DNA of 64,000 nucleotides, taken from assembly GCA_963714015.1 (NCBI GenBank), contig OY970223.1:672001-736000 (forward strand). The letters run 5' to 3'. The DNA comes from Vulcanimicrobiota bacterium. GTDB taxonomy: Bacteria > Vulcanimicrobiota > Vulcanimicrobiia > Vulcanimicrobiales > Vulcanimicrobiaceae. Positions 4,008 to 36,851 of the stretch are shown piece after piece. Under the pieces are notes generated by a model. The model was not told the DNA's origin and did not search any database. It saw only the letters and a list, made by a program, of their open reading frames with translations. Made by a program: the position numbers and the translations under genes. How positions within the stretch are numbered: position 1 is the first letter of the stretch; each line of letters begins with the position of its first letter.

Positions 4008-5654
4008 TCACTTGATCCGTTCGTTCAAATAGGAAAAGAGTTCGTCGGGGTCGTCGCCGGGGCCATTCGCAAAGGCGTCTGCGCCGTCTTGCAGCCGTGC
4101 TGCCGTACGCGCGGCGGTTCCCCCTTTTGGCTTAGCGGCCGCCGCACCCGCTTCAAACCGAACCTGCAGATCCGCGCCAAGGGCCTCTTGAATCGCCGAG
4201 CGGATCAACGGCGCACTCTCTTTGAGGATCTCCGCCGAGTACGGACTGGGAACTTTGATCGCCAGGACGCCGTCCTGCAACGAGGCCGGCATCGCGCGCC
4301 GCAGCTCCCCGCGCAGCGATTGCCGCTGGCTCTCGACCTTCGTGCGGATCGACTCCCAGGCAGCTCGGACTTTCTGGATCGTCACGGGAGCCTGCGGCGA
4401 AGCAGAAGCGGCCGGCGAGCGGCCGGAAGAGTCCGCCGGCGCAGGGGGCACGCGGGCCGGCGCAGGAGCCGGAACATCCGGCGGCGTTTCGACGGCCGGT
4501 GCGGTTTGGAGCGCGGGTACCGTGGGGCCGGCTTCTAGGACGGAAACGCGGGCGCTCAGGGCGTCGTAGGTGGGGTCCTCCGGCGCAAAGACGTACCGCA
4601 GCAGCGCCGTTTCGAGCTCGAGGCGCGGGTTGCCCGAGGATCGCGCCGTCGTGAGCCCGTCCGAGAGCAGACGCAGCGCGCGCACGACGAGCGCCTGCGG
4701 AAGTTGCCGGCTCCGCTCCGCCGCGACTCGTGCGTCCTCGGGTGCGAGATCGCGGGCCAGCAGCGCCGGCTCGATCCGGGCCACCAGCAAATTGCGAAAC
4801 TCGGCGATGAGGCCGCGCATAAGCACCTGCATGTCGGCGCCTGCGTCGCTGGCCTCGTCGATGGTCTTGAGCACGCCGCTCGCATCGCGCGCGATCAATT
4901 GATCGATCAGCGTACCTGCGTAATTTCGGCCGCTCGCGCCGAACGCCAGATCGATGGTCTGCGCCGCGATCGCGCCTTCCGCGAACGCCGCGGCTTGTTC
5001 GAGCATGGTGAGTGCGTCGCGCAATCCGCCGTCGGCCCGGTACGCAATTGCGGAGAGCGCCGCGTCGTCCACGGGTATGCCTTCGGCTTTTGCAATGTCC
5101 CGCATGCGTTCGATCATCACGGGAATTGCAATGCGACGGAATGCATAACGCTGACATCGTGACAGAATCGTTACGGGCAGTTTCTCCGGCTCGGTCGTCG
5201 CCAAAATGAAGACCGCGTGCGGCGGCGGCTCTTCCAACGTCTTCAAAAACGCGTTAGCGCCCTCTTTGGTGAGCATGTGCGCCTCGTCGATGATGTAAAC
5301 TTTCATCCGCATCGTCGCCGGCGCAAACTTCACCGCGTCGCGCAGCGCGCGGATCTCGTCGATCCCGCGATTGCTGGCCGCATCTATCTCCAGGACGTCG
5401 AGAGCGGTGCCCGCTAAAATGGCCTGACAGTTCTCGCAGGTGTTGTCGGGCGCCGCCGTAGGACCGTTTACGCAGTCGATGCAGCGCGCGAGGATCTTTG
5501 CCGCGGACGTCTTTCCCGAACCGCGCGGCCCCGAGAAGAGATAGGCGTGCGCGAGCTTACCGCTCTCAAGTGCACTCGTCAGCGTACGAACGACTGCGTC
5601 CTGGCCGACGAGATCGGCAAAGGTCTTTGGGCGCCAGGTTCGATAGAGGGACAC
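4008..5654 (-). CDS. dnaX: DNA polymerase III subunit gamma/tau
   Basis: SLYRTWRPKTF, GPRGSGKTS, EIDAASNRG, IIDEAHML, LKTLEEPP, TILSRCQ. Confidence 0.97.
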   Translation of the reverse strand: MSLYRTWRPKTFADLVGQDAVVRTLTSALESGKLAHAYLFSGPRGSGKTSAAKILARCIDCVNGPTAAPDNTCENCQAILAGTALDVLEIDAASNRGIDEIRALRDAVKFAPATMRMKVYIIDEAHMLTKEGANAFLKTLEEPPPHAVFILATTEPEKLPVTILSRCQRYAFRRIAIPVMIERMRDIAKAEGIPVDDAALSAIAYRADGGLRDALTMLEQAAAFAEGAIAAQTIDLAFGASGRNYAGTLIDQLIARDASGVLKTIDEASDAGADMQVLMRGLIAEFRNLLVARIEPALLARDLAPEDARVAAERSRQLPQALVVRALRLLSDGLTTARSSGNPRLELETALLRYVFAPEDPTYDALSARVSVLEAGPTVPALQTAPAVETPPDVPAPAPARVPPAPADSSGRSPAASASPQAPVTIQKVRAAWESIRTKVESQRQSLRGELRRAMPASLQDGVLAIKVPSPYSAEILKESAPLIRSAIQEALGADLQVRFEAGAAAAKPKGGTAARTAARLQDGADAFANGPGDDPDELFSYLNERIK

Positions 5655-20189: not shown

Positions 20190-20960
20190 TCATTTCAGCA
20201 GGACGCCGCGCTGCGATTCCCCTTCCAGAAACTGCAGCATATGCCGGCCCGAATCGGTAGCCGCTTCGGACTTCATCACCTCGAGCGCTTCCGCCAAACG
20301 CAACTTCGAACCGTTGAGCAGCTTGTAGAACTTTTTGATCTCGGCTCGGTCTTCGTCGCTGAAGCTGGCGCGCCGAAGGCCGACGCTGTTCAATCCATAC
20401 GGTACGGCCGGGTCGCCTTCGACGAGAAAATACGGCGGAATGTCGCGGCGCACTTTACTGGCGCCCCCGACGAACGCGTAGCGCCCTACGCGGACGAATT
20501 GATGAAATCCCGCCATGCCGCCGATCGTCACGTTGTCTTCGACGAAGCAATGTCCGGCAAGCTGCGCCAGGTTGCTCATCGTCACGTTGTTCCCGACCTC
20601 GCAATTGTGCGCGATGTGCACGTACCCCAGCAGCAAACAGTCGTCGCCGACGACCGTTGCTTGGTCTTCTCCCGTCGCGCGCTGAATGCTGACGTACTCC
20701 CGAATGACCGTACGGCTTCCAATTCTCGTGTACGCGCGCTCGCCTTCGTATTTTTTATCTTGCGAGGCGGCTCCGATGGTCGCGAACGGATAAATCCGGC
20801 TATCCTCGCCGATCGAAGTCCAGCCGTTTACCACGACGTGCGCTTGCAGCACCGTCCCGCGTCCGATCGACACGTTCTCTCCGACGACGCAATACGGACC
20901 GATCTCGACGCCGCGATCGAGTTTCGCATTCGGATGGACGATCGCCGTCGGGTGGATCAT
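20190..20960 (-). CDS. lpxA: UDP-N-acetylglucosamine acyltransferase LpxA
   Basis: MIHPTAIV hexapeptide repeats, QDKKYEGE, IREYVSI, HIAHNC, LAGH, GLNSVGLRR. Confidence 0.97.
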   Translation of the reverse strand: MIHPTAIVHPNAKLDRGVEIGPYCVVGENVSIGRGTVLQAHVVVNGWTSIGEDSRIYPFATIGAASQDKKYEGERAYTRIGSRTVIREYVSIQRATGEDQATVVGDDCLLLGYVHIAHNCEVGNNVTMSNLAQLAGHCFVEDNVTIGGMAGFHQFVRVGRYAFVGGASKVRRDIPPYFLVEGDPAVPYGLNSVGLRRASFSDEDRAEIKKFYKLLNGSKLRLAEALEVMKSEAATDSGRHMLQFLEGESQRGVLLK

Positions 20961-20966
20961 TTAAAA

Positions 20967-21070
20967 GGCGCTCCGCCCTAGGCTCCGCGCCCCCCACGCT
21001 AAAGCGTGGGGCCCCCACGTCCTCATGGCGCTTAAAGCTCGTACTCGACCATCGCCTCCCCGAGGGCGCC
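20967..21070. repeat. 104-bp structured repeat element, single diverged copy between fabZ and lpxA
   Basis: GGCGCTCCGCCCTAGGCT.CGCGCCCCCC..GGGGCCCCCA..CTCCCCG.GGGCGCC shared with copies at 35647-36008; same length. Confidence 0.88.
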
Positions 21071-21102
21071 GGTGAGGTCTCTCCACGGGGGCTGCCAAGG
21101 CC

Positions 21103-21576
21103 TCAAGCATGCAGCACCGTCGCGTCAAAACCGAAGAGCCGCGGATCCGACGCAATTGAAAACATGAGTTCCGCCGAGACGACGAATTGATCTTCTACGC
21201 GTCCTTCGGCATGCACCCAGCCGATGTTGCGCTTGTGTTTGGTCAGGCGCACTTCCATCATGAAACGATCGCCCGGCACGACGGGGCGGCGGAATTTGCA
21301 CGCGTCGATACCGGCCAGGTACGGCGTCTTGCGAGAAAATTCGCCGGGCTCCAGGACGACGGCGCCGCCGAGCTGCGCAAGCGCTTCGATCATGTAGACG
21401 CCGGGCAGGAGCGGATTTCCCGGGAAATGCCCCGTGAATACGGGCTCGGTCGCGGTTACGTTCTTGTAACCGACGGCGCGCACGCCGGGCTCTAATTCCA
21501 CGATCCGATCGACCAGCAGAATCGGATAGCGGTGCGGCAAGATCTCCATGATCTGCCGGATGTCGAGTTCAGCCAA
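21103..21576 (-). CDS. fabZ: 3-hydroxyacyl-ACP dehydratase FabZ
   Basis: LPHRYP.LLVDRI, KNVT, FTGHFPGNP.LPGV..IEALAQ, FRRPVVPGD; TTG start 21576. Confidence 0.95.
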   Translation of the reverse strand: MAELDIRQIMEILPHRYPILLVDRIVELEPGVRAVGYKNVTATEPVFTGHFPGNPLLPGVYMIEALAQLGGAVVLEPGEFSRKTPYLAGIDACKFRRPVVPGDRFMMEVRLTKHKRNIGWVHAEGRVEDQFVVSAELMFSIASDPRLFGFDATVLHA

Positions 21577-21578
21577 GG

Positions 21579-22421
21579 CTATTGCACTTTCGCAGCCGGC
21601 AGAGGATTTTGGCGAAGCTTGCGCAGCTCGCTCGTGGCGAGGCAGTGCAGCTTGTGACCGCTCTTGATCGCCACGATCTCGCATTGCGGATATGCGCCGA
21701 GCAGCGCGAAGTCTCCAAGCAGGTCGAGCACTTTATGGCGCACCGGCTCGTCGGGCCAGCGCAGTTCCTGCATGGGTCCTTCGGGCGCAAACACCACGGC
21801 GTTCTCGAGCGTACCGCCCTTGGCCAGCCCGCGATCCAGCAGCGCCTGCACTTCGTGCAGATATCCGAACGTGCGCGCAGCCGCTATTTCGCGCTCGAAC
21901 ACGCCGGAATCCATTTCGGCGTCAAAGTATTGCGCACCGATGGGCGGAGCAAAGTCGGCGATGAAGCGCACGCGCAAACGCGCGGCGGGAAGAATGACGA
22001 TCGCGCGGTCGCCGTCCCGCAGGAAGACCGCCGAGAGCGGGACGTACGTCTCGCGAACTTCTTTTTGCCGGACGGTGCCGGCTTCATGGATGCGATCGAC
22101 GAAGAACTTGGCGCTGCCGTCCGCGACGGGAATTTCCGGACCGTCGACGTGGATCTCGGCGTTGGCAACTCCCGTTCCGAACAGTGCGGAAAGCAGATGC
22201 TCGACCGTGGAGATAGTGACGCCGTCTTTGCCCAAGACCGTTGCGCGCGCGGTTTCGACGACGAACTCGGCCAGAGCCGGAATGTTTACGCCGCCGGAGC
22301 GAAAGACGAATCCCGAATCGGGAGCCCCGGGACGCACTTCAATGCGGCAAGCAGCGCCGCTATGCAGTCCTACGCCGTGCACTTCGAACGCGTTGCGCAG
22401 CGTGCTCTGGTACTGCGTCAC
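21579..22421 (-). CDS. lpxC: UDP-3-O-acyl-N-acetylglucosamine deacetylase LpxC
   Basis: GVGLHSG, TVEHLLSAL, ARTFG, GGTLENA, RHKVLDLLGD, GHKLH. Confidence 0.96.
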   Translation of the reverse strand: MTQYQSTLRNAFEVHGVGLHSGAACRIEVRPGAPDSGFVFRSGGVNIPALAEFVVETARATVLGKDGVTISTVEHLLSALFGTGVANAEIHVDGPEIPVADGSAKFFVDRIHEAGTVRQKEVRETYVPLSAVFLRDGDRAIVILPAARLRVRFIADFAPPIGAQYFDAEMDSGVFEREIAAARTFGYLHEVQALLDRGLAKGGTLENAVVFAPEGPMQELRWPDEPVRHKVLDLLGDFALLGAYPQCEIVAIKSGHKLHCLATSELRKLRQNPLPAAKVQ

Positions 22422-33743: not shown

Positions 33744-35639
33744 TTAGAGGTCTAAGTTCTTGACGGATTTGGCGTACTCGAAAATGTACTGCTTGCGCGG
33801 TTCGACTTTGTCACCCATCAGGTCCGTGAAGATCTGCTCCGCCTCGACGGCGTCTTCGACGGTGATGCGTTTGAGCCGGCGGTTCCCGACCTCCATCGTC
33901 GTATCGGCCAGCTGCTCGGCGTCCATCTCGCCCAGGCCCTTGTACTGCTGGACGACGTAGTCTTTACCGTCTTCCCCGATGATGGACTTGAGCTCCGGCT
34001 CGCTGAACGCGTACCACTGCTTTTTTCCCTTGCGCACGCCGTAAAGCGGCGGCTGAGCGATGTAGACGTAGCCTTCTTCGACCAGCGGTTTCATCTGCCG
34101 GTAGAAGAACGTCAGCAGGAGCGTGCGGATGTGCGAACCGTCCACGTCGGCGTCGGTCATAATGATGATCTTGTGATAGCGCAGCTTGCCGGCGTCGAAC
34201 TCGTCGCCGAAACCGGTCCCCAGCGCCGTGATCATCGTGCGAATCTCTTCGTTCGAGAGAACCTTGTCCAGGCGAGCCTTTTCGACGTTGAGAATCTTGC
34301 CGCGCAGCGGCAGGATCGCTTGAGTATTCGGATCGCGCCCGCCTTTCGCGGTGCCGCCGGCCGAGTCGCCCTCGACCAAGAAGATCTCGCTCTCCGCGGG
34401 ATTATTGTTCTTGCAGTCGACCAGTTTGCCGGGCAGACCCGAGCCTTCGAGCGCGTTTTTGCGGCGCGACAGGTCGCGCGCCTTTTTCGCGGCCTCGCGC
34501 GCGCGCTGCGCCTGCATGCACTTGTCGATGATCGTGCGTGCCGATTTCGGCGTCTCTTCGAAGAAAAAGTCCAGGCGCTCGTTGACCAGCGTGTAGACGA
34601 TGTTGCGCACGCTGGCGTTGCCGAGCTTCGTTTTCGTTTGACCTTCGAACTGCGGCTCCGCCAGCTTCACCGAAACGACCGCCGTGAGTCCTTCCATGCA
34701 ATCGTCGGTAGAGAGATTGCTGTCGGATTCCTTGAGCATGCCGCGTTTCTTCGCGTAGCTATTGACCGAATTGCTGATCGCCGTGCGAAAACCGGTGAGG
34801 TGCATGCCGCCCTCGATCGTATTGATGTTATTTGCATACGACGAGATGATCTCGGTGTAGGTGTCGGTCCATTGCATCGCAACTTCGACGTCGACGCCGT
34901 CGCGTTCGTTGTGCGTCGAGATGATGGGATGCAGCGGGTCCTTCTTCTCGTTCAGCCATTCAACGAAGGAGACGATGCCGCCGTCGAACTTGAACGTGCG
35001 CTCGCGCACTTGCTCTCCCCGCTCGTCACGCAGATCGATCGCAAGCCCGCGATTGAGGAACGCTAATTCGCGCAGCCGCTTGGCCAGCACGTCCCAGTGA
35101 AACTCCGTGACCTCGAACATCTCGCGATCGGGAAGAAACCACTGCAGCGTTCCCGTGCCCTCCGCCGCGCCAAGCTTCTTGAGTTTCTGCACCGTCAGCC
35201 CGCGCTCGAACTTCATCTCCCACAACTTGCCGTCACGTTTGACGCGCGTGGTCATCTGCTCGGAGAGCGCGTTGACGACGGAGATGCCCACACCGTGCAG
35301 GCCGCCCGAAACCTTATAGCCGCCTTTGCCGAACTTGCCGCCCGCATGGAGGATCGTCATGATCACTTCGACTGCCGGCATCTTTTCTTCGGCGTGGATG
35401 TCGATTGGAATGCCGCGGCCGTCGTCCTCGACGGAGCACGATCCGTCCTTGTACAGAACGACTTTGATGTTCTTGGCGTAGCCGGCCAACGCTTCGTCGA
35501 CCGCGTTGTCGACGGCTTCGTACACGAGCTGATGCAGCCCCCGCTCCGCAGTGTTGCCGATGTACATGCCGGGGCGTTTGCGAACCGCTTCGAGACCCTT
35601 GAGGACCTCGATTTGCTCCGCGCCGTAGTTGTTACTCAC
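33744..35639 (-). CDS. gyrB: DNA gyrase subunit B
   Basis: LEAVRKRPGMYIG, LHAGGKF, SGGLHGVG, VEGDSAGG, PLRGKILN, MTDADVDG, YKGLGEM. Confidence 0.97.
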   Translation of the reverse strand: MSNNYGAEQIEVLKGLEAVRKRPGMYIGNTAERGLHQLVYEAVDNAVDEALAGYAKNIKVVLYKDGSCSVEDDGRGIPIDIHAEEKMPAVEVIMTILHAGGKFGKGGYKVSGGLHGVGISVVNALSEQMTTRVKRDGKLWEMKFERGLTVQKLKKLGAAEGTGTLQWFLPDREMFEVTEFHWDVLAKRLRELAFLNRGLAIDLRDERGEQVRERTFKFDGGIVSFVEWLNEKKDPLHPIISTHNERDGVDVEVAMQWTDTYTEIISSYANNINTIEGGMHLTGFRTAISNSVNSYAKKRGMLKESDSNLSTDDCMEGLTAVVSVKLAEPQFEGQTKTKLGNASVRNIVYTLVNERLDFFFEETPKSARTIIDKCMQAQRAREAAKKARDLSRRKNALEGSGLPGKLVDCKNNNPAESEIFLVEGDSAGGTAKGGRDPNTQAILPLRGKILNVEKARLDKVLSNEEIRTMITALGTGFGDEFDAGKLRYHKIIIMTDADVDGSHIRTLLLTFFYRQMKPLVEEGYVYIAQPPLYGVRKGKKQWYAFSEPELKSIIGEDGKDYVVQQYKGLGEMDAEQLADTTMEVGNRRLKRITVEDAVEAEQIFTDLMGDKVEPRKQYIFEYAKSVKNLDL

Positions 35640-36025
35640 TCTGAAAGGCGCTCCGCCCTAGGCTGCGCGCCCCCCGCGCAAAAGCGCGGGGCCCCCAAGA
35701 CAGTGGGGCGCGCATGATTCGTTTTACTCCAGAGACTCCCCGTGGGCGCCCCTATCGACGGTTTGCTTTTTGAAAGGCGCTCCGCCCTAGGCTGCGCGCC
35801 CCCCGCGCAAAAGCGCGGGGCCCCCATGACCGTGGGGCGCGCATGATTCGTTTTAGTCCAGAGACTCCCCGTGGGCGCCCCTATCGACGTTTTGCTTTTT
35901 GAAAGACGCTCCGCCCTAGGCTGCGCGCCCCCCGCGCAAAAGCGCGGGGCCCCCATGACCGTGGGGCGCGCATGATTCGTTCTTATCGAGAGCCTCCCCG
36001 TGGGCGCCCCAATCGACGTTTTCAT
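35636..36025 (-). CDS. Repeat-derived 129-aa ORF (3 x 43 aa) bridging dciA and gyrB
   Basis: ATG 6 nt after the dciA stop; TGA overlaps the gyrB GTG (GTGA); no recognisable protein family. Confidence 0.35.
   Translation of the reverse strand: MKTSIGAPTGRLSIRTNHARPTVMGAPRFCAGGAQPRAERLSKSKTSIGAPTGSLWTKTNHARPTVMGAPRFCAGGAQPRAERLSKSKPSIGAPTGSLWSKTNHARPTVLGAPRFCAGGAQPRAERLSE
35640..36025. repeat. Three tandem 129-bp repeats, each containing the 104-bp structured element
   Basis: Cores at 35647-35750, 35776-35879 and 35905-36008; near-identical; period 129 bp. Confidence 0.95.
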
Positions 36026-36031
36026 TGAATG

Positions 36032-36851
36032 TTATTTCCCGTAGAAGATGTCGTGGAGTTCGTCGCCCAGCAGATCGCGCACGACCGCCGGAACGATCCG
36101 CTCCGGATCCAATTCACTCTTGAGCAGCACGTACGAACTGGCAATCAATCGATCGCGAGACGTCAGCGCTTTTCCGCCCGTTCGACGCACTCGTTCGAGC
36201 GCATCGTGCCAGCGGCGCAGCAGACGCTGCCGTATCGCTTGATATTCGCGCTGCGTCAAATCCTCGACCAGCGGTGCTATGCCGGCGTATCCGAGCCACG
36301 GCACTTCAAAAAGCAGGCGAGCTACGGATGCATCCCGTTCTTGCGATTTTGCATTTGCGCAAGGCACGCAAAACGGCCCGGATTCCGGAACATTCCGGGC
36401 ACCGCACCGCATGCATTGTTTCCACCCCGCGACGGTTTTCGCCCGCTTGAACGCCTCCACGTCCTCCCGAAAACGTTCGAACGCGGCTTTGAGCGTTTCG
36501 ACCGGTTCGCGCTTGTCGCGACGGACGCGGCGCGCAGGTCGCGAGGGTCCGAAATTGGGAGCAGTCTGCTGCAAGCGGCCTACCCGGAAGCGGAGGCGCT
36601 CGAGCTCGACGCCGGCGTGGACGCGCAAGGCGTCCAATATCCGGTCGCTCAAGAAGGAGAGCTGCTGACTCCACGCGCCGGACCGCGTGAGCACGAGCAG
36701 TGAACCATGAGCTATTTCTTGCGGGCGGCTGTTTGCGGCGACGTCGTCGCCGACGACGCTGCTCCATGCGGCCCTTATGTACAACAGCGGATCGGCGCTC
36801 AAAGGCTGCAGTTGGTTCCCAGTCGGAGAGCGCCGCACCGAGCCGCTTCAA
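36032..36851 (-). CDS. dciA: DciA/DUF721 family protein with Zn ribbon (frameshift ~36805)
   Basis: AWSSVVGDDVAANSRP, LLVLTRSGAWSQQLSF, LRFRVG; CMRC..CVPC; between recF and gyrB; TTG 36851 overlaps recF stop. Confidence 0.8.

Follow-up and report, generated by a model that had tools for sequence, protein, structure and literature searches.

How does an essential gene come to carry an array of structured repeats directly on its start codon, and by what means might it still be translated? The question is posed by a 64,000-nucleotide stretch of contig OY970223.1 (positions 672,001 to 736,000 of the forward strand, assembly GCA_963714015.1; hereafter, the window) from a soil Eremiobacterota genome, in which three tandem 129-nt units occupy the gap between dciA and gyrB and a single, diverged copy of the same element lies between fabZ and lpxA. 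The comparative analysis presented here points, as the probable though by no means certain explanation, to a non-autonomous mobile intercistronic element of the Baltobacteraceae (Eremiobacterota) that resembles the interspersed repetitive units (MIRUs) of mycobacteria and acts as a translational relay. The element lands on or immediately ahead of start codons within operons, and it looks to have been copied recently onto the starts of gyrB, lpxA and some twenty other core genes of this genome.

Placement of the element at start codons

Both loci of the window had been singled out in an original prediction made from the sequence, and this part of the description has held up. Tandem Repeats Finder recovers the three 129-bp units said to fill the dciA-gyrB gap (35642-36022, period 129, 3.0 copies, 96% matches, score 686), as does a repeat search that also places the diverged fabZ-lpxA copy in register with the gyrB units (20962-21090, 67% identity to the reference unit). 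The names given to gyrB, dciA, fabZ and lpxA agree with Pfam, by which the gene order on the minus strand of the window is dnaN-recF-dciA-gyrB. The predicted end of the repeat core 6-7 nt ahead of the start codon is likewise seen in the sequence of both loci, where a conserved GGAGCGCC is followed by 6-7 nt and the start codon: 7 nt separate GCGCC from the GTG of gyrB (35639), and 6 nt separate it from the ATG of lpxA. The GyrB N-terminus can be aligned with its relatives from the GTG at 35639 onward, and the TAA of dciA is found at 36034-36032 (Table 1). No Rfam family matches the 64-kb window at its gathering score, permissive E-values yielding chance-level matches (the best in the array with E=0.24, far below gathering scores), and a promoter and terminator scan of the gyrB array returned no sites.

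An iterated nhmmer search of the 3.56-Mb single-contig genome (61% GC) retrieves 38 copies in 22 arrays, nine of which are composed of two to five units with periods of 107-133 nt; the rplF array has one unit in this genome (G000) and two in G007. A check of their placement finds it not to be random. A long open reading frame (ORF) begins 5-8 nt past GCGCC in 18 of the 22 arrays, and the last unit in these 18 ends in G-N-AGCGCC, followed by about seven U/A-rich nucleotides and the start codon. Nineteen of the 20 downstream ORFs tested have Pfam families and lie on the strand of the element: lpxA, atpA, mreB, T2SS-F, a WYL regulator, nifU, fliG, flbD, rpsS, rplN, rplE, rplF, rpmJ, a pknB/PASTA kinase, prfA, a PurP-like enzyme, a NuoN-like subunit and two others. 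Similarly, 14 of the 18 upstream ORFs tested are known, co-oriented genes, among them fabZ, hisS, atpH, nifS, flgE, rplX, rpsH, map, a PBP gene and rpmE. Since the flanking genes are known and co-oriented, the element can be placed inside core-gene operons, and the ribosomal-protein cluster alone holds it five times.

The same anchoring was evaluated in 105 arrays from 12 genomes (G000, together with 60 regions and 21 loci of 11 relatives, unpublished genomes being omitted), scoring as the start the first start codon to open an ORF of at least 36 codons. This start lies 6, 7 or 8 nt past GCGCC in 24, 42 and 7 arrays, respectively (73/105), and 5 nt past it in two more, which brings to 75 the arrays with a start within 5-8 nt; among the remaining arrays it is farther off in 18 and none was found in 12. 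A stop codon falls within -7 to +4 of the start in 73 of the 75 start-adjacent arrays, either as a TGA inside an NTGA overlap or as a TAA/TAG in the spacer. NTGA starts are present in 52 of the 75, a terminal stop in that frame being counted in 55, and a spacer stop accompanies 21 of the 23 non-NTGA starts versus 16 of the 52 NTGA starts (Fisher 8.6e-7; the pattern is also seen within several genomes). One kind of stop stands in for the other. In 52 of the 75 arrays an A follows the start codon directly, as compared with 33% of all predicted genes.

A covariance model trained on 18 copies assigns the element to 17 of 24 further genomes of the Baltobacteraceae and to none of 16 genomes outside this taxonomic family (five of a sister family and 11 of the same class). 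Across the three congeners, it yields 46 hits in G000 versus 8 and 5 in the other two (G001 and G002). Scanning the genome collection for the pattern gave 25 stretches, of which most were chance matches in other high-GC phyla, and a limited search of the full-text literature turned up no published account of such repeats in Eremiobacterota.

Several copies depart from the common layout. A full-length copy on the minus strand (G000:C1:2740125-2740235; L043:2493-2619; 126 bits) is without an ORF behind it, with a GC-rich hairpin coming after it; it might have been stranded or might give a free-standing transcript. A diverged copy with an insertion (G000:C1:1951732-1951865, plus strand; L039:3660-3793), overlooked by nhmmer, follows fliG directly and ends in GCAGCGCCTTTCCAA and then the ATG of the next flagellar gene, so that fliG has copies on both sides. 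Long variants of 174-187 nt occur in G013 (loci L163, L169 and L170) and G017 (L172, L177 and L178), with 55-65 nt extra within a hairpin loop and the rest intact, and several of them end at a start codon. Remnants consisting of the 3' module alone (GGAGCGCC, U/A-rich spacer and start codon) stand ahead of other genes (G000:C1 near 1314418, 1289075, 3075672, 146081 and 1475120), which suggests that old copies decay to the portion serving the start codon. A loose scan for GNAGCGCC plus a start codon gave 1726 matches and is too permissive for counting, a handful of the matches resembling 3'-end remnants. In the rpmE-prfA gap of all three congeners, rpmE is followed by a hairpin that resembles a terminator and has a T-run (L044 in G000, L216 in G001, L217 in G002), and in G000 a two-unit array lies beyond it, directly on the prfA start; not all copies, therefore, sit in tight operon junctions. 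Elsewhere in the window, three 64-nt direct repeats (1798-2263, exact spacing of 201 nt, 72-73% identity) probably correspond to a repeated 67-residue protein domain, unrelated to the element.

Table 1. Genes, repeat units, reading frames and structural features of the gyrB and lpxA loci, in window coordinates.
Feature	Position	Strand	Remarks
gyrB	33744..35639	-	Pfam DNA_gyraseB, Toprim, HATPase_c, DNA_gyraseB_C; start codon abutted by array
dciA	36032..36838	-	Pfam DciA PF05258, 2.8e-14
lpxA	20190..20960	-	Pfam Hexapep and Acetyltransf_11; start abutted by single copy
fabZ	21103..21684	-	Pfam FabA-like, 7.8e-29; upstream of lpxA
Three tandem 129-nt units, dciA-gyrB gap	35642..36028	-	Covariance model scores 118-125 bits each
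gyrB-proximal unit	35642-35770	-	Reference for repeat comparison
Middle unit	35771-35899	-	97% to reference unit
dciA-proximal unit	35900-36028	-	89% to reference unit; own 5' junction
Single diverged copy, fabZ-lpxA gap	20957..21090	-	Covariance model 130 bits; ends in GGAGCGCCTTTTAA then ATG
Relay ORF, gyrB locus	35636..36025	-	129 codons; in frame with dciA; no Pfam family
Relay ORF, lpxA locus	20961..21110	-	49 codons; three-frame translation; frame open 231 nt
ATGA, 5' flank of gyrB array	36022..36025	-	Position of gyrB start in relatives, shortly past dciA stop
GTGA	35636..35639	-	Present gyrB start overlapping relay-ORF stop; putative second copy of (A/G)TGA duplication
P1, 5' domain of gyrB-proximal unit	35707..35750	-	GGCGC 35750-35746 with GCGCC 35711-35707
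P2, gyrB-proximal unit	35672..35691	-	CCCCGCG...CGCGGGG
3' domain P3/P3a, gyrB-proximal unit	35647..35671	-	P3: GGCGC 35671-35667, GCGCC 35651-35647
P3a, gyrB-proximal unit	GCC 35663-35661, GGC 35657-35655	-	
3x3 loop GCA/GGA with SD-like GGAG, gyrB-proximal unit	GGA 35654-35652; GGAG 35654-35651	-	

RNA helices and candidate relay reading frames

The structure of the element was derived from mutual information on 116 copies and from pair counts. Helix P1 joins the 5' GGCGC to a mid-element GCGCC, two of its pairs being distributed as GC 85/CG 11/AU 9 and GC 92/CG 13; it is absent from the search model, and in the gyrB-proximal unit it encloses a conserved CCCNCGGGGAG motif and a variable stretch. 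The central hairpin, P2, contains a pair found as CG 56/UA 38/GC 9/AU 8, and its compensatory change is visible within the window, the CCCCGCG...CGCGGGG of the gyrB unit corresponding to CCCCACG...CGTGGGG in the lpxA copy. P3, which joins a GGCGC just past the central hairpin to the 3' GCGCC, is almost invariant and 99.3% paired, and it encloses, besides a 3x3 internal loop, P3a, a 3-bp hairpin with one pair distributed as CG 58/GC 46/UA 4. Over the 20 modelled pairs, 95.2% of cells are paired and both-side changes are seen in 14, a result that none of 500 shuffles reaches, while slid controls are only 33-61% paired. Covariation supports three local helices, to which an invariant fourth is added. 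The folding energy of a single unit is no better than that of shuffles (z = -0.5), so that it is covariation that carries the structural claim. A further helix put forward by RNAalifold (CCCTC/GGGGG) was without compensatory support and was omitted from the model.

This anatomy differs from the one originally predicted, in which the ends of the core paired with each other and masked a Shine-Dalgarno (SD) sequence, GGAG, supplied by the element. The corresponding alternative with swapped partners (five end-to-end and five mid-to-post-hairpin pairs) has no compensatory change in any of its ten pairs, and variation on the 5' side of the end-to-end helix disrupts it in 30 and 16 sequences. Neither is GGAG conserved as the SD of the element: it is present in 73 of the 116 copies (63%), with GAAG in 27 and GCAG in 8. 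The G and A of GGAG that are conserved face a conserved G and A over a 3x3 loop (G.A in 110/116, A.G in 109/116), and these oppositions would be compatible with sheared G.A pairs. GGAG begins 15 nt ahead of the start, SD-like motifs peak at 11-12 nt genome-wide, and the 16S tail is canonical in this genome. Because P3 ends 7 nt ahead of the start, the folded element should, on this model, hinder de novo binding of the 30S subunit.

At gyrB, the 129-codon ORF predicted to bridge dciA to gyrB with a GTGA overlap (hereafter, the relay ORF) is confirmed by the ORF list and the sequence. It begins at an ATG (36025) 6 nt past the TAA of dciA, in a frame that opens immediately past the dciA stop, stays open across all three units and ends in a TGA (35638-35636) that overlaps the GTG of gyrB. 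Such a bridge is not peculiar to gyrB. The 49-codon relay ORF of lpxA has its ATG (21110) overlapping the end of fabZ (stop 21105-21103) and its TAA (20963-20961) directly abutting the ATG of lpxA (20960), and 60 of the 75 start-adjacent arrays are spanned in their entirety by an ORF ending at a stop that overlaps or abuts the start. The frame is more commonly open if the terminal stop lies in it (41/55 vs 9/20, p = 0.026; 17/24 vs 19/51, p = 0.012, in another comparison). Moreover, a NuoM-like gene (Pfam 8.3e-52) and hisS read through the element to the coupling stop, which gives their predicted products tails of about 40 residues. The notion that a relay ORF must share the frame of the upstream gene was dropped; it does so at three loci (A2, gyrB and A20), approximately the one-in-three expected by chance.

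Insertion history and competing explanations

Comparison of filled and empty sites shows recent insertion at all seven loci tested (gyrB, lpxA, pknB, nifU, T2SSF, prfA and the A1 gene), each of which is filled in G000 and empty in both congeners. The gyrB junction of the congeners, devoid of the element, consists of the TAA of dciA, 11 nt and ATG in G001, and of TAAATG in G002. This junction is empty as well in 28 of 29 loci of other genera, the filled one belonging to an unpublished genome (G023), and a metagenome contig of an approximately 90% relative (Logan contigs) joins dciA to gyrB without the element. Among the congeners, the gyrB insertion is shown to be limited to this species, and the element was probably then triplicated in place.

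The flanks of the gyrB array read ATGA...GTGA, and the ATGA at 36022-36025 is probably the ancestral gyrB start together with one copy of a 4-nt target duplication. At pknB the flanks read ATGA...ATGA, and a congener has a plain GTGA overlap. More generally, the 5' edge bears NTGA in 30 of 88 arrays versus 12.7% expected. For the gyrB units, the nearest sequences (80-86%) are those of the HMGL-WYL array in the same genome, and for the lpxA copy it is the nifU copy (81%); on the other hand, the rplF, rpmJ and atpA copies are closest to same-gene copies in other genera, with hairpins kept by compensatory changes. Judging from these sequence affinities, the family appears to be composed of old inherited copies and of a recent burst in this species.

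Other junctions bear traces of rearrangement. In the fabZ-lpxA gap of another genus (G009:C122, L196), the covariance model detects a reversed copy (G009:C122:13074-13199:+), the sole one observed. An 8-nt inverted repeat (CCACCCAG/CTGGGTGG) borders it, as does a second version of the first four codons of lpxA, in diverged form, right past the fabZ stop; the arrangement reflects an inversion or else a separate insertion at this site. Ahead of an aminotransferase gene, where G000 has three units, G001 carries a different insert of about 262 nt (L207, G001:C5, ~4902-5165) with long perfect inverted repeats and short direct repeats, unrelated to the element; this junction draws in repeats of more than one type. 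Two additional partial copies of the 5' end, of some 20 nt each, precede the full element at nifU in its 5' flank (L038, G000:C1 ~1539730-1539770), which points to stuttering at the 5' edge of the element or to partial duplications that recurred there.

A MIRU-like element acting as a translational relay could accommodate these observations as follows. Insertion with a duplicated (A/G)TGA would leave the old gyrB start to open an ORF running through the element, and this relay ORF ends in the TGA overlapping the new gyrB start codon. Ribosomes initiating at the old site, or arriving from the upstream gene, would translate through the element, unwinding its GC-rich helices (including P3, which ends 7 nt before the start), and would terminate at the start codon and re-initiate there, with the U/A-rich 7-nt spacer, and GGAG where present, probably aiding the restart. 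From the sequence arrangement we infer that the essential downstream gene and the expression of the operon survive the insertion because ribosomes read through and re-initiate. The original prediction had offered a mobile element and a melting of the structure by upstream ribosomes as alternatives; the second is compatible with the P1-P3 anatomy and is not a rival to the first.

Several points weigh against this explanation. Among the sequencing runs listed for the region none is an RNA run, and the runs contain small shares of it. A clean flanking duplication is seen in two of the seven filled/empty comparisons (gyrB and pknB) and is lacking at lpxA, nifU, T2SSF, prfA and the A1 gene. The copies from relatives in the anchoring survey are the best-scoring hits of a model whose last three positions are ATG, which slightly favours start-adjacent copies, and all copies are related rather than independent, so that the p-values given above overstate the evidence. 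At 61-68% GC, about 45% of frames are open in shuffled bodies versus 56-70% observed, and with 0.53-0.64 per frame the bodies have no fewer stops than the reverse complement (0.66); the open-frame signal is, hence, modest. Among the nine multi-unit arrays of G000, four are spanned by a single ORF, array periods (107-133) are mostly not multiples of three, and the relay start lies near the upstream stop at gyrB, lpxA, atpA and rplF but not at A2 and A12. A check for a mobilizing enzyme, be it a TnpA-Y1/REP-associated tyrosine transposase (RAYT) or a parent insertion sequence (IS), found none: the single-contig genome has no match to the Y1 transposase (PF01797, detected in six of 14 control genomes), to the reverse transcriptase RVT_1 or to DDE_3. 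DDE_Tnp_1 and rve genes are present, and 12 of them were scanned for nearby termini of the element; nothing was found near 11, and a short 3'-core pattern 3.6 kb from the twelfth looks like chance. Finally, same-gene copies in different genera keep their helices by compensatory change, and a purely selfish, merely tolerated element does not require such upkeep.

This last observation also fits another explanation, which we consider unlikely, whereby the element is a lineage-specific cis-regulatory RNA, either a leader or a structure between cistrons, that sets translation through a protein, a small RNA, a ligand or temperature, with the relay ORFs being secondary and with ribosomal proteins, ATP synthase, gyrase, MreB, LpxA, RF1 and PknB as the candidate growth regulon. 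The three to four helices and their covariation statistics speak in its favour, as do the compensatory upkeep at the same gene across genera (atpA, four genomes; rpmJ, four) and the occupation of the same sites across genera at atpA, rplF, rpsS, rpmJ, fliG and mreB. The near-invariant GNA/GNA internal loop and the CGGGGAG motif resemble recognition surfaces, the constant distance to the start codon is like that of translational riboswitches, and the surplus of G-U pairs over A-C mismatches (41 vs 26) is a weak sign of folding of the sense strand. Nonetheless, the element matches no Rfam family, it occurs in tandem arrays of up to five units and in reversed orientation at lpxA in another genus, its downstream genes do not share a single common pathway and the folding energy of a unit is no better than that of shuffles. 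The species-specific gains at all tested sites and the uneven copy numbers of the congeners are the behaviour of a proliferating repeat, not of a stable regulon.

A rather unlikely extension is that the Baltobacteraceae have adopted the element as a portable translation-control cassette, constituting a single post-transcriptional growth/dormancy switch operated by one trans-acting factor or signal. If this were true, that factor or signal would read a conserved RNA fold made up of P1, P2, P3/P3a, the GNA/GNA loop and the CGGGGAG motif, the genes for ribosomal proteins, ATP synthase, gyrase, MreB, LpxA, RF1 and PknB and the flagellar genes would share a regulon, and a gene would join this regulon by gaining a copy at its start codon.

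The original prediction had also entertained an element like miniature inverted-repeat transposable elements (MITEs) or repetitive extragenic palindromic (REP) sequences. Of this, the dispersed, MITE-like family inside essential operons stands, whereas no RAYT, Y1 or parent IS was found and the SD it was thought to carry is not conserved. In its strict form, a DNA hairpin element related to REPs, bacterial interspersed mosaic elements (BIMEs) or IS200/IS605 would act at the level of DNA or mRNA stability, for instance by binding gyrase or nucleoid proteins or as a barrier to mRNA decay, and would have ended up at start codons because insertions are tolerated there. GC-rich, dispersed, often tandem copies with imperfectly inverted termini fit such an element, and co-varying stems are also expected of single-stranded DNA hairpins. 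REPs, however, are typically located after genes, and here 75 of the 105 arrays end at a start within a 4-nt window, co-oriented with the gene; the complementary pattern of stops at the start has no rationale at the DNA level; and no Y1 (RAYT/IS200) transposase was found in the single-contig genome by a search that did detect control genomes. Units of ~115-129 nt also lie far above the roughly 35 bp reported for REPs in a passage of PMC3184786. We hold this explanation to be very unlikely. Lastly, an assembly over-expansion of one unit combined with a chance open frame in GC-rich DNA is scarcely credible: no Logan contig spans the gyrB array and 40-codon open frames are expected in ~45% of shuffled bodies, but the three units differ mutually (97% and 89% identity, with the dciA-side unit having its own 5' junction), which argues against simple over-expansion, short contigs of run X1, which may be the source sample, lie on the unit junctions with 0-2 mismatches, arrays of two to five units are found at nine loci of the genome and also in relatives, and the family-wide stop/start pattern is very unlikely by chance.

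Significance and relation to known systems

A MIRU-type design would thus be found in an unrelated and largely uncultivated phylum, in copies that are longer and more structured. Vulcanimicrobium alpinum has been reported in culture (PMC9758169). For MIRUs, a 2025 review of coupling (PMC12548453) accounts for their movement, and for their being able to occupy start codons within operons, by a likely explanation only. Here, empty sites in congeners allow recent insertions to be dated, which provides a comparative means of working out the targeting rule (ATGA overlaps and start codons) and natural before/after junctions at essential genes, gyrB, lpxA and pknB among them, and the covariation in the family-wide alignment is sufficient to design mutants of both structure and ORF. 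The element is also relevant to genome annotation, where its arrays yield spurious ORFs, C-terminal tails (as in the NuoM-like protein and HisS) and shifted start codons, and to genome assembly, since the arrays probably break short-read assemblies at core operons; one congener contig ended at an element-type site.

In relation to known systems, the element shares with REPs, BIMEs and MITEs its short length, dispersion, high GC content, imperfect inverted termini and occasional clustering. It differs from the REP/BIME-RAYT system and from MITEs in that neither a Y1/RAYT gene nor an IS with shared termini accompanies it, in its strict anchoring to strand and start codon and in having a flanking duplication at some sites only. 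Rickettsia palindromic elements, as outlined in part of PMC3184786, measure ~105-146 bp, keep the reading frame open and become part of host proteins. The predicted ~40-residue tails added to the products of the NuoM-like gene and hisS are reminiscent of them; by the same outline, those elements lie within coding sequences, whereas the element described here is found at gene junctions and anchored to the downstream start.

The same 2025 review (PMC12548453) treats translational coupling that proceeds by RNA unfolding or by re-initiation, for instance through short delivery ORFs. The likeness to the cases described there resides in a structure beside the downstream ribosome-binding region, in an upstream ORF that ends at -4, at -1 or abutting the start, and in a short ORF whose only likely role is to bring ribosomes. 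As opposed to coupling that has evolved once per gene pair, as those cases have it, the element would be a portable, repeated coupling cassette.

The closest parallel lies with the MIRUs. According to two later accounts of these units (Supply et al. 1997), they insert at start codons and contain an internal ORF coupled at -4 spacing (PMC12548453); filled sites are marked by direct repeats of 4 nt, and the units have GC-rich inverted repeats as well as ORFs that overlap the genes on either side (PMC3184786). By these descriptions, the element is MIRU-like in being intercistronic within operons, oriented with the gene (with the reversed copy at lpxA in G009 as the one exception) and often tandem; in its insertion at start codons and its internal ORF ending in an ATGA-type overlap at -4; possibly in 4-nt direct repeats, clear at only two of seven sites (gyrB and pknB); and in its GC-rich internal inverted repeats, its dozens of copies per genome and the lack of a known transposase. 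It departs from them in belonging to Eremiobacterota rather than Actinomycetota, in units of ~107-133 nt as opposed to the 40-100 bp of MIRUs, in a multi-helix structure with extensive compensatory change over at least 11 genera, in a stop within the 7-nt spacer that replaces the overlap at non-NTGA starts and in the existence of old copies, common to several genera, in ribosomal-protein and ATP synthase operons. Because phylum and unit length differ, sequence homology to the mycobacterial MIRUs seems unlikely, and by analogy the element looks like their independent counterpart.

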